DNA of 63,781 bases, filler included, from Collodictyon triciliatum (lineage: Eukaryota): NCBI GenBank assembly GCA_043381765.1. It is 23 parts of 23 records of this genome, joined end to end, with 100 filler letters (N's around TTAATTAATTAA, not from the genome) between each part and the next. Parts side by side here need not be neighbours in the genome. Positions count along the whole stretch, not along the records: positions 19,632 to 22,332 come from JBHJMP010008423.1; 22 more parts are not named here. One strand, 5' to 3'. Each line of letters opens with the position of its first letter. Positions within the stretch are counted from its first letter, which is position 1. Position numbers and translations under genes: made by a program. The notes beneath the pieces were generated by a model. The model saw only the letters and a list, made by a program, of their open reading frames with translations. It ran no database searches and was not told the origin of the DNA. Positions 19,632 to 22,432 of this stretch are shown here, in pieces.

Positions 19632-21429
19632 GGAAGTGACGACGCTTCCGGTATAATGGGTTCAAATATGTCGTCGTCTGGATTTCGTTTTGTTAGAACC
19701 CCAAATAATCCTGTCTCCGGAACAGAATTAAACCAAACTGTGATAAAATCATGTGGAACAAATTGCATAACAGTATCAGGTAATATGGTTACATCTGGAA
19801 GTGTCCCGGTTGTAGATTCGCAAAAAGTGGAGGTATTTGTGCCAATGTCAATAGCAGATGGAAGTGTGTCAGCATGCGGATTAAATTTTTTTTACCTCTA
19901 CCAACACAGGCCTAGTAAAAGCAACAGTCGGGTCTGATATTGGAATCGGTCTTGCAGCAAACGGTACACAAGTTTGCTCTGTAGTAGGTGGTAATATTAG
20001 ATTATCTGGTGGAAGCACAATTCGTAATAATGTCAGCAATCCATCTTCAAATATCCAATTCGTTGGCAGTGCGGCTGGGGCGACTGGTTATATTCAGTCG
20101 TCATTTAGTGATTCTACTACAGGAACAGTAGCAACTTACAGGTTGGGTAATGGCACAAACTGGCCAGCTACTGAAACGGTTATGAGTAGGCTAGCTGGTG
20201 GAACTGGAACGAATGAAATATTTGTAACTGAGCACGGAAATACATATTTTAGATTTCTAGGGGCAACAAATACGGGGGCAACTTTGCCGACACGAGTTCA
20301 GAGGGTTGAAATTAATAATTCAGGTATGAGCATAACAGGCGACCTTACAGTGAGTGGACGGGCTACAATTCCAGATGTCGTTTATCCATTTGATGTATTT
20401 ACAAGCACTGGATCAACTGCCGATTTTTCACTTGCTCAAAGTACTAGATCCAATGTAAGACTGGAGATGGATACATTTAATACAATATTGCGATTCCCGG
20501 CTTTAGTAGAAGGCACGTTTTACAGAATTGTACCGTTTCGTAATGGTACTACAGCAACATTGTCGTTTAGACCTGGAAACAATGTAAATATGTATATGTA
20601 TAGTGGAGGGAGTAGATCTCAAGTTACTGGAAATACCGGAGGTTCAGTTGGCATTACTGTTTTACCTGGCACGTTTTATGAGTGTATATTTAGTGCGGGA
20701 GCTTGGTATGTTGTCGCGCAGCATCCCATTGCTAATTGTGCATTACCAGCTGATGTTAGTGTCGGAGGAAATTTAACAGTTACTGGGACCATTACGGGAA
20801 CAATTAATTTTCCTAGCAACACTATAAACGTCCTAAATGTACAATTTGGAGGCACAGGAGCAAGCATCACAGGGGCTAATTCCGGTGTAAATTCATCGGT
20901 TAATATTCAGACTGAAGCACAAAATCGTGTAAATGTAAAATCAAATGATACGGAAATACTTAACAGTTTAAATATCAGTAGAGGAATCATATCACCTTAT
21001 CTAATAATTGACAAACAAACTCACATAGTATCAAGAAATACTCCAGCACACGTAATATTAACCAGAGCTACATCTGGTACTACTAATTCTGCATTACATA
21101 TACCCTTAGCATCTGATGTACCATTAGGATTTGGATTTCGTTTATACATATTTAACTTACCTGGACGTACAATTTTAACAAACGACGTCTTTATTAGAAT
21201 AATAAACGCATCAAACAATCCACTTATTTTTACACCTTCTACAAACATTCGTTATTTTGTGGGGGGTCAAGACTATTTTTTTACATCGACCACAGTTCGA
21301 TATGTGGTGTTGGATATTTACAATATGCGTGACTGGGAATCAGGTAAATCAAGATGGATTATAACTCCATTGACTCAATGGATTGAGCCAGACCCAGCCA
21401 CTACTGTATGGCTTGGAAATGACAACTAA
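19632..21429 (+). CDS. Virus-like fibre/tail-fibre-type beta-rich protein (5' end cut by the contig; +1 frameshift at the T8 run, 19886-19893)
   Basis: Intron-free and G/T/S/N-rich, with fibre-shaft motifs SITGDLTVSG, VSVGGNLTVTGTITG and ADGSVSACGLNF-TSTNTGL. The frame starting at 19894 runs open into ORF 20143-21429. Confidence 0.65.
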
Positions 21430-21459
21430 ACAATTTTTATGAATAATAAGAATTGTTTA
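21427..21459 (+). terminator. AT-rich hairpin overlapping the stop codon (mimivirus-type 3'-end palindrome)
   Basis: TAAACAATTTTTAT-GAATA-ATAAGAATTGTTTA: 14-bp stem with one G.T pair and a 5-nt loop. Confidence 0.6.
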
Positions 21460-21467
21460 ATAATTGC

Positions 21468-21691
21468 CGCCCCCCCAACAATTTTCCGCCTCCGCTTGAT
21501 GATCGGGTGGTGGAGCTTGAGCCCTTAGCCCCCGGGCTCCAATCGCCTATATTATTCTATTTTATTTTTTTAAAATTTTAAAATTTTAAAATAAAAAAAG
21601 AAGATATATAAAAGGATTTGGGCAGGAAAAATTCTTAGCCATTGACCATCAATCTCAACATTTAGAGGCGGAAAGTTGTTGGAGGGGGGCG
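21468..21691. repeat. ~225-bp imperfect palindrome between convergent genes
   Basis: Outer arms CGCCCCCCCAACAATTTTCCGCCTC / GAGGCGGAAAGTTGTTGGAGGGGGGCG; inner arms TTGATGATC / GACCATCAA; centre TTTTAAAATTTTAAAATTTTAAAA. Confidence 0.85.
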
Positions 21692-21709
21692 ATTTTATTT
21701 TATCCATGG

Positions 21710-22186
21710 TCAAAGGAAGCGATGCTGCCAACACGTTTTGTAGATTGGATTGATTGTTTTACCACATATATCACAAAGGCCTATTCTGCAATCATTGCAC
21801 CTATTGACTTTTCGATTTTTATGCGGGTCATGGCATATGTCGCAGTTGCGGCCGCTGGCACATCCGTCTGGCAAAAATTGTTTCTTACAACATCGGCCTA
21901 TTACTAAAACTTTTTCGCCGTCGGTAATCCAATGATTGTAGTGAATGGCGTGACAGCACACACATTCCTTACTTCTAGGCAAAGGGCTAAGTTTTTTTAT
22001 TAACCTGGGATTTGTTTTTTTAACAAGATCAAAATAACTGTCTGTTGTTACTTCGGCATCATATTCATCGTCGCTGTCTTTTTTTTCTCCACCAATGTAC
22101 CACCAACCATTTAAGTCTGCTGGTTCCATTTCATATTTGCGATAAAGTCCATCGATAAATTTTTTGTGCAATGTGTACTGAGCCAT
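21710..22186 (-). CDS. Cys-rich zinc-ribbon hypothetical protein of a type seen in large DNA viruses and virophages
   Basis: Intron-free 158 aa with CVCCHAI...IGRCCKKQF...CDICHDPHKNRKVNRCNDCR..CDICGK...CWQH. Confidence 0.7.
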   Translation of the reverse strand: MAQYTLHKKFIDGLYRKYEMEPADLNGWWYIGGEKKDSDDEYDAEVTTDSYFDLVKKTNPRLIKKLSPLPRSKECVCCHAIHYNHWITDGEKVLVIGRCCKKQFLPDGCASGRNCDICHDPHKNRKVNRCNDCRIGLCDICGKTINPIYKTCWQHRFL

Positions 22187-22222
22187 TTTGAAAAAACTAT
22201 TTCGACAACCATAAATTTAAAA

Positions 22223-22230
22223 TCAATTTT
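22223..22230 (-). promoter_or_regulatory. AAAATTGA motif (Mimiviridae early-promoter consensus)
   Basis: Exact octamer 37-44 nt upstream of the ATG at 22186. Weak alone, since the octamer also occurs in AT-rich host contigs. Confidence 0.5.
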
Positions 22231-22432
22231 TGTTTTCACCACAAGAAATGCCACGCCCAGAATCCCGCACTCCTTGGGTCATCTATGTTATCTTTGGCGT
22301 GGCGCTTTCTGTATTGTGCCCGTTGTTTTGAANNNNNNNNNNNNNNNNNNNNNNNNNNNNNNNNNNNNNNNNNNNNTTAATTAATTAANNNNNNNNNNNN
22401 NNNNNNNNNNNNNNNNNNNNNNNNNNNNNNNN

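Follow-up and report, generated by a model that had tools for sequence, protein, structure and literature searches.

The question raised by this locus is whose DNA is carried by a 2701-bp contig that lies at positions 19632-22332 (JBHJMP010008423.1) of a 63,781-base stretch taken from the assembly of the protist Collodictyon triciliatum (GCA_043381765.1). This whole stretch, hereafter the window, joins 23 contigs of ~2.7 kb each, sorted by length and drawn from several loci, with N/TTAATTAATTAA spacers between them. A preliminary description had proposed that the contig is a fragment of a nucleocytovirus, a virophage or a Polinton-like virus (PLV). We found that the third of these options is supported by the gene set of a metagenomic relative that shares the fibre gene, and by the context in which further relatives occur. 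We consider it very probable that the contig is a fragment of a ~17-kb double-stranded DNA (dsDNA) virus of the PLV kind, with a double-jelly-roll (DJR) capsid.

The contig has a GC content of 0.39 and carries two convergent genes, a fibre-like gene on the plus strand and a cysteine-rich gene on the minus strand, with 2275 of its 2701 bases (84%) coding. The convergence of these two genes and the dense coding had both been described before and are borne out, and in gene content the contig is not host-like. Its ends are unique sequence without microsatellites, whereas most contigs of the window terminate in microsatellites or homopolymers. The absence of simple repeats had been taken to set the contig apart from the host; it is real, but the contigs at 14028-16730 and 16831-19531 lack such ends as well. 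No junction to host DNA is present on the contig, and Rfam and tRNA scans of the whole window gave no match.

PLVs and virophages are abundant in water and few of them have a known host, and integrated copies can serve protists as defences against giant viruses. A piece of a PLV in the assembly of a protist is of interest as a candidate host link, which would guide the hunt for the remainder of the element and for a giant-virus partner. On present evidence, it is a short and broken piece of a virus whose kind is known. The element is new, as neither of its gene families has been described, and both the kind of element and the logic of its fibre are already in print.

Metagenomic relatives and their gene content

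Relatives of the fibre were found for 17 of 8000 scored candidates. For seven of these 17 the longest contig measures 13.6-24.9 kb, and the others are on shorter fragments. The cluster closest to the fibre, P0004, is 71% identical over 83% of the query, and its four members are on contigs of 17215, 16905, 17092 and 16904 bp; furthermore, P0006 is on a 17173-bp contig and P0018 on a 24938-bp contig. The recurring lengths of 16.9-17.2 kb suggest complete genomes of ~17 kb. The cysteine-rich protein (P0001) has six metagenomic relatives, and its exact sequence is found on four contigs, the longest of 17,215 bp. This identity argues for a virus that may be circulating at present over an old relic.

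A metagenome scan with the fibre returned two loci, L001 (2273 bp) and L002 (14,818 bp), the second of which carries the fibre relative P0011 at 6907-9330. Pfam matches above the family cut-offs identify on L002 an rve integrase, a DUF5906 protein of the primase-helicase type and a Pox_A32 packaging ATPase (P0032), and the last open reading frame (ORF), cut by the contig end, encodes the N-terminal part of a capsid protein (Table 1). Taken together within ~15-17 kb, a DJR capsid protein, an A32 ATPase, a helicase of the superfamily-3 type and an integrase make up the gene set that PLVs and virophages carry.

The capsid assignment was reached through a relative, the L002 ORF itself having no Pfam or PDB sequence match. 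An exhaustive HMMER search with this ORF gave 129 relatives at E<=1e-3, 17 at <=1e-10 and three at <=1e-30, mostly of 400-600 aa. We aligned 63 of the 129 (P0033-P0101), leaving out the hits ranked below P0101, the fragments P0040, P0059, P0077 and P0079, and the N-terminally truncated P0034 and P0084. The full-length P0033, which is 86% identical to the L002 ORF, gave a model with a predicted local distance difference test (pLDDT) of 79.7 and a predicted template modelling score (pTM) of 0.81. Against BFVD, the best match of this model is an unnamed viral protein (E 6.9e-22), followed by capsid proteins of Adintovirus, nucleocytoplasmic large DNA viruses (NCLDV), adomavirus and virophages; against the PDB, it matches Vp54 of the chlorella virus PBCV-1 (3.9e-15), Singapore grouper iridovirus (SGIV), Sputnik (3j26; 9.9e-14) and mavirus (3.0e-11). 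Judged by this predicted fold, P0033 is a DJR capsid protein.

PLVs have genomes of ~14-40 kb and are without the protein-primed DNA polymerase (pPolB) and the protease of Polintons. Of 33 L002 ORFs of at least 70 aa, many are overlapping shadow frames, and in the 16 distinct ones Pfam found neither a protease nor a PolB domain on what is an incomplete contig, a result more in keeping with a PLV than with a virophage or a Polinton. A penton candidate, the 254-aa ORF P0031 directly upstream of the fibre gene, has no sequence match, and the search for terminal inverted repeats in the incomplete contig gave a single weak pair (28 nt, 75% complementary). Collectively, PLV membership is demonstrated for L002, and the contig of the window, which shares its fibre and resembles a PLV in its working, is most probably a PLV as well. 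The rve integrase indicates that the lineage can probably integrate.

These features agree with those of the PLVs of aquatic protists, among them PgVV-14T/Gezel-14T of Phaeocystis globosa and PLVs known from freshwater metagenomes. Such PLVs have ~15-25 kb of dsDNA, as the relatives found here probably do, and they carry an integrase, a DJR major capsid protein (MCP), an ATPase of the A32 type and a primase-helicase of superfamily 3 (DUF5906), all of them present in L002. A long phage-like modular fibre gene is a further likeness in the available part of the PLV descriptions. There are differences beside these likenesses: the PgVV group is described, in that same part, with a tyrosine recombinase while the L002 integrase is of the rve type, and no named PLV was matched in the collections searched.

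Two observations on the relatives concern the surroundings of the fibre gene. On L002, a 1368-aa ORF (9362-13468, minus strand) faces the fibre gene and shares the same hairpin; its Pfam matches are sub-threshold and of coiled-coil type, and it may be a further large structural protein. On L001, a 178-aa ORF and the 255-aa ORF that follows it, with an open end (together 925-2271), match the L002 fibre region at 85% and 81%, and the fibre gene of L001 looks split or differently started.

Table 1. Features of the contig (window coordinates) and of its metagenomic relative L002 (L002 coordinates)
Feature	Location	Strand	Evidence
Probable PLV genome fragment, whole 2701-bp contig	19632..22332		both ends within viral sequence; 84% coding; context of relatives
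Fibre gene, first reading frame, 87 codons, open at 5' contig end	19632..19893	+	63-65% identity to P0017/P0018 residues 199-276 only
T8 homopolymer, fibre frame change	19886..19893	+	reading frames; both parts abut in P0017/P0018
Fibre module A (P0002 residues 1-155), conserved core	19885..20349	+	71-84% identity, 15/20 relatives
Fibre module B (residues 156-310)	20350..20814	+	79-91% identity, 9/20 relatives
Fibre module C (residues 311-514 + TAA), rare, presumed receptor-binding	20815..21429	+	P0012 56%, P0014 55%
AT-rich hairpin at fibre stop codon, presumed transcript 3'-end/termination signal	21427..21459	+	fold; kept in L002
Structured intergenic element	21465..21693		arms 21470-21492 / 21665-21687, GC-rich, 23 nt, 91% complementary
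Cys-rich protein P0001, C-terminal half weakly B-box-like	21710..22186	-	12 conserved Cys or Cys/His positions
AAAATTGA, candidate mimivirid-type early promoter core (weak evidence)	22223..22230	-	44 nt upstream of P0001 ATG
rve integrase	L002 51-1307		Pfam E 7.5e-12, 45.9 bits vs cut-off 32.6
DUF5906 primase-helicase-type protein	L002 2026-4431	-	E 2.2e-16, 61 vs cut-off 27.6
Pox_A32 packaging ATPase (P0032)	L002 4783-5505	-	E 2.4e-09, 37.4 bits vs cut-off 22.8
Capsid protein, N-terminal 311 aa, 3' open	L002 13886-14818		via relative P0033

The mosaic fibre gene

The fibre gene had been described as a single gene of ~600 codons. We found that the ORF is broken: its 5' part is cut off by the contig end, and the frame changes at a T8 run. 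From the contig's first base onwards one frame stays open as far as ~19893, and the second (P0002, 514 codons) extends from 19885 to 21429. The relatives P0017 and P0018 hold both parts unbroken, the first part aligning to their residues 199-276 and the second beginning at 276; because the two parts abut at this residue, the frame must change inside the T8 run. It follows from the same alignment that ~190 N-terminal codons fall beyond the contig end, the ATG at 19656 being internal. The change may be a sequencing or assembly error or a real frameshift, and it fits decay of the gene as well as a sequencing error.

Alignment and segment-wise BLAST against 20 relatives resolve the fibre into several segments. 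The N-terminal fragment (P0003) is similar to P0017 and P0018 only, at 63-65% identity, apart from a short piece of P0016. Fifteen of the 20 relatives match module A along its whole length, with one further partial and one weak match, and it is nearest to the P0004 group (84%). Module B is kept in nine relatives and missing from the rest, the P0004 group again being closest at 90-91%, so that this group is the closest relative for both middle modules. For module C, apart from P0012 (56%) and P0014 (55%), seven others reach 29-35%, the P0004 group among them at 34%, and a region search with residues 311-514 recovered one protein among 495 candidates. The combination of modules seen in the window was found in no relative. 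On these comparisons, four modules that differ in their nearest relatives make up the fibre as a mosaic, which bears on how small viruses may alter host recognition.

Pfam found nothing over its cut-offs for the fibre (P0002), the N-terminal fragment or P0001, and in the fibre did not detect Peptidase_S74, collagen, laminin_G or gp36 domains. PHROGs gave no significant match, the best being a tail-fibre family for the N-terminal fragment (E 0.13) and the next at E 0.23, and a PDB sequence search with the fibre returned no match. As far as these profile and sequence searches reach, neither gene of the contig belongs to a described family.

Three copies of fibre residues 296-514 modelled as a complex reached a score of 0.85, against 0.00 for the best of three controls. 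In a calibration that used two copies and not three, that mark was attained by 21 of 30 proteins whose solved form is a pair of one chain, and by none of 23 solved as single chains; the alignment made here was not used in the model. Agreement of contacts between runs was at least 71% and pLDDT of the partner at least 67, and the confident interface lies mostly in residues 296-372. This modelling supports self-association of residues 296-514, as a homotrimer.

In the available part of PMC12220804, PLVs carry phage-like modular fibres that are thought to mediate host attachment, and the available part of bioRxiv 10.1101/2022.07.28.501842 reports the fibre-like Ltf protein of PgVV-14T in virions. 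The receptor-binding fibres of tailed phages and adenoviruses are likewise built from a conserved core and a swappable C-terminal module, and resemble the window fibre in its predicted homotrimer; the sequence features of the window fibre are also like those of tailed phages. Unlike them, it has no sequence or profile match to phage or adenovirus fibre families, and it could still work like a phage fibre despite matching no profile of a described fibre family. We infer that the product of the gene is a virion fibre that forms trimers and bears a receptor-binding tip open to exchange.

In this reading, the contig would be about one sixth of the genome of a PLV from a freshwater or soil lineage with genomes of ~17 kb, and its first gene would be the 3' three quarters of a gene for a virion fibre, or adhesin, with exchangeable modules. 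A variable N-proximal part would be followed by a conserved core and by the rare C-terminal module, which most likely is the trimeric receptor-binding tip. The contig ends, in unique sequence, in the most mosaic part of the fibre; an assembly broken by co-existing variants would fit such an end.

Candidate transcription signals and the cysteine-rich protein

A hairpin of 14 pairs with a 5-nt loop had been noticed at the stop codon of the fibre gene, and it withstands folding analysis. Its arms (21427-21440 / 21446-21459), the first of which begins with the fibre TAA, form 13 Watson-Crick pairs and one G.U pair. Folded as RNA, it has a free energy of -11.8 kcal/mol (z -6.36), and none of 200 shuffled sequences folds equally well. 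The same hairpin sequence is found at the fibre stop of L002 (z -4.36), in the 31-nt gap before the convergent 1368-aa gene; by BLASTN, window 21424-21463 and L002 9329-9368 are 92.5% identical over 40 nt. By comparison, the DNA of the conserved fibre core is only 69-72% identical between the window and L002, and the module-C coding DNA beside the hairpin gives no blastn match to L002 at E 1e-3. This conservation may be due to selection, to recent common ancestry or to a part played by the hairpin as a boundary for recombination in the exchange of tips. The AT-rich stem lacks a T tail, and a scan for bacterial-type terminators found none at the gene ends and a single match inside the fibre ORF (1 vs 2.1 expected).

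According to the available part of PMC4402537, Mimiviridae use AAAATTGA promoters and hairpin-forming polyadenylation signals. The AT-rich 14-bp hairpin of the window, at a stop codon between convergent genes, resembles this mimivirid "hairpin rule". A difference is that mimivirid hairpins are described, in that part of PMC4402537, as not conserved in sequence, whereas the window and L002 hairpins are conserved between two elements. Most likely it is at this hairpin that the two convergent transcripts have their 3' ends; if so, it would act like the signals of the hairpin rule. With the hairpin sequence kept and the adjoining coding DNA not, the use of mimivirid-type 3'-end signals by PLVs is directly testable.

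The preliminary description also drew on AAAATTGA, reported upstream of one gene. The motif is indeed present on the minus strand, beginning 44 nt before the ATG of P0001, but the window has it 14 times where 15.94 are expected, a number attained by 70 of 100 shuffles; this is the chance level, and by count its presence is therefore no evidence. Thus, of the earlier argument from transcription signals, the hairpin stands as significant and conserved, while the AAAATTGA count does not exceed chance; the likeness to the Mimiviridae early promoter is confined in the same way to the exact motif and its distance from the P0001 start. On the contig the motif precedes the one complete gene start. Across the contig, L001 and L002, an exact AAAATTGA is located at most 120 nt upstream of two of 14 gene starts, against a chance expectation of ~0.2-0.3 estimated by hand. 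Besides P0001, the second of these starts belongs to an L002 gene of 205 aa whose AT-hook match is weak and below threshold; here the motif is 18 nt away from the TTG listed as the start, and ~72 nt away from the gene's first ATG. We regard this position upstream of two of 14 starts as suggestive, not strong. In the available part of the PgVV-14T description (bioRxiv 10.1101/2022.07.28.501842), AAAATTGA-type early motifs precede five genes and are common to the virus and its mesomimivirus helper; there, as with P0001 here, the motif precedes a small non-structural gene.

P0001 is a protein of 158 aa with 13 cysteines and seven histidines. Among the seven members of its family, 11 cysteines are invariant, and a twelfth position is cysteine in the relatives and histidine in the window copy. 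These 12 conserved Cys or Cys/His positions are sufficient for three zinc sites of four ligands each. A profile of the seven members matches MID1 B-box1 (2ffw) weakly (E 0.018), a PDB sequence search with P0001 itself gives MID1 at E 0.1, and no Pfam family matches any of the seven. P0001 is probably a small zinc-binding viral protein, possibly regulatory, a role that we propose with low confidence; as the second gene of a PLV it would probably be early or regulatory.

Together, the hairpin and the AAAATTGA upstream of P0001 would imply transcription by a giant-virus helper and a virophage-like lifestyle. Such helper dependence is putative, as is any link to the protist of the assembly. A wider scheme, which we consider rather doubtful, would be an undescribed three-way system of the protist, a giant virus of the mimivirid type and a PLV lineage with an rve integrase that borrows early promoter and hairpin 3'-end signals from the giant virus; in this scheme the hairpin would in addition be the downstream homology arm, and the conserved core the upstream one, for swaps of receptor-binding fibre-tip cassettes between co-infecting PLVs, and the ~200-nt elements bounded by inverted repeats (see below) would be small and mobile, spreading inside such genomes.

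Competing explanations, intergenic repeats and the rest of the window

The gene set of L002 is shared by PLVs and virophages, and the closest competitor is therefore a fragment of a true virophage (Maveriviricetes/Lavidaviridae), a group with a cysteine protease and obligate parasitism on giant viruses. The capsid fold and the ATPase of the L002 lineage are like those of Sputnik and mavirus: in addition to the PDB match to Sputnik, the P0033 model matches in BFVD the capsids of Sissi virophage (4.8e-14), Qinghai Lake virophage (3.7e-12) and mavirus (3.2e-09). Mavirus carries an rve integrase, and this integrase and an A32 ATPase occur together in mavirus-type virophages as in L002. Virophages also use the promoter and hairpin signals of their helper (available part of PMC4402537), and a hairpin and AAAATTGA are reported for Sputnik-type systems in the available parts of PMC4402537 and PMC11464507. 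Against this, the fold matches place unnamed viral proteins (413-523 aa) and then Adintovirus and NCLDV MCPs before any virophage, and the cysteine protease of virophages was not found in the 16 distinct ORFs of L002, which on an incomplete contig is not decisive. A genome of ~17 kb and a DUF5906 helicase suit both groups. On balance, we judge a virophage improbable.

A fragment of a giant virus (Nucleocytoviricota) infecting the protist or integrated in it, with its own AAAATTGA promoter and hairpin terminator, would account for signals that are those of Mimiviridae in the available part of PMC4402537. The Atlas feature neighbours listed for P0001 are furthermore all viral (Nucleocytoviricota/Preplasmiviricota; score 0.94), and for most of them Nucleocytoviricota is the phylum, which in the Atlas means the commonest phylum among members with a record; such neighbours are leads only. 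Since PLVs and giant viruses share genes, they do not decide for a giant virus. Nucleocytoviricota are marked by a large genome that encodes PolB, VLTF3, RNA polymerase and further core genes. The longest contigs of the relatives do not exceed 24.9 kb, with several clustered near 17 kb, and L002 holds a complete small-virus gene set, including the rve integrase, in 14.8 kb. The giant-virus reading of the contig thus fails on the context of its relatives, and we consider it very unlikely.

Least credible of all is contamination by a tailed bacteriophage or a bacterium, the outcome that would have overturned the preliminary description, under which the fibre would belong to a phage tail and the hairpin would act as a terminator of the bacterial type. 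The nearest Atlas clusters of the fibre are hypothetical phage proteins (Uroviricota, 0.93-0.95; again leads only), one of them with PF26209 in 72% of its members, and to these may be added the weak PHROG tail-fibre match of the N-terminal fragment. However, that match is not significant and Pfam gives none, tblastn of the fibre against 50,697 phage records and a scan of 185,579 prokaryote species genomes were both without a match, the relative carries eukaryotic-virus hallmarks, and the hairpin lacks a T tail, the lone bacterial-type terminator being the one inside the fibre ORF.

The assignment to PLVs has points against it as well. None of the MCP, ATPase and integrase genes is on the contig, and the assignment is made via linkage in relatives. 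L002, the single long relative read, is an incomplete contig, its fibre reaches 62% identity to the window fibre in the best tblastn segment, and the P0001 family was not found in it. The longest contig is 17,215 bp both for the exact P0001 and for P0004, which suggests that P0001 and the fibre gene are neighbours in one 17.2-kb genome, and this equal figure is the whole basis for placing them together. IMG/VR viral contigs gave no match for the fibre, P0004, P0001 and P0033 proteins, or for the hairpin or the inverted-repeat arm as DNA patterns; tblastn of the L002 ATPase against the phage records gave none either, and together with the empty phage search for the fibre and the empty prokaryote scan this leaves the lineage with no named virus as an anchor. 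A k-mer comparison with the other contigs had been proposed as a check and does not discriminate: by trinucleotide distance the contig ranks fifth of 23, and composition does not separate it. To the chance-level count of AAAATTGA must be added that the AlphaFold model of P0001 (seven-sequence alignment) was poor and was not used (pLDDT 51.3, pTM 0.37), and that the hairpin stems are identical in both copies and so show no covariation; recent shared ancestry or recombination, instead of selection, could have conserved them.

As a hint to where the lineage occurs, an index of sequencing runs returned 20 rows from 11 studies, whose labels name metagenomes of subsurface, soil, freshwater, lake, wetland and aquaculture origin. 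None of the rows reached a share of 0.5 of the sampled words, the best being 0.38, and the rows and labels are unverified; they hint that related sequence occurs in environmental samples.

Between the hairpin and P0001, the intergenic element (DNA fold z -5.62) has an AT-rich palindrome within the ~172 nt that its GC-rich arms enclose. The segment looks like an insertion, the counterpart gap in L002 being only 31 nt. We considered a miniature inverted-repeat transposable element (MITE) with a target-site duplication and rejected it, as no duplication is evident at the flanks and the window holds no second copy. The element has no similarity to the L002 element described next and no match in IMG/VR.

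L002 holds two direct copies of a ~205-nt element (4373-4577 and 5899-6102) with a 157-nt core that is 99% identical. A GC-rich inverted repeat of its own (arms of 19-21 nt, ~145 nt apart) bounds each copy, which is located in promoter-bearing intergenic DNA (DNA fold z -5.08). This inverted-repeat architecture is common to the window and L002 elements. Duplication of a regulatory region could account for the L002 element, or it could be mobile, a small element inside the ~17-kb genome.

Other contigs of the window are eukaryote-like, with an oxysterol-binding protein ORF, a DEAD-box fragment and a RINGv fragment. The strongest compositional outlier of the window is the contig at 55985-58677 (GC 0.53 vs 0.32-0.44 elsewhere), in which an unbroken frame of 895 codons has the oxysterol-binding protein domain (E 1.6e-99); this contig may derive from another organism present in the sample. 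Finally, at 62388-63524 on the minus strand, two ORF pieces ~180 nt apart, one with a sub-threshold DEAD-box helicase match (E 1.8e-4, 21.7 bits vs cut-off 26), are consistent with a host gene split by an intron.

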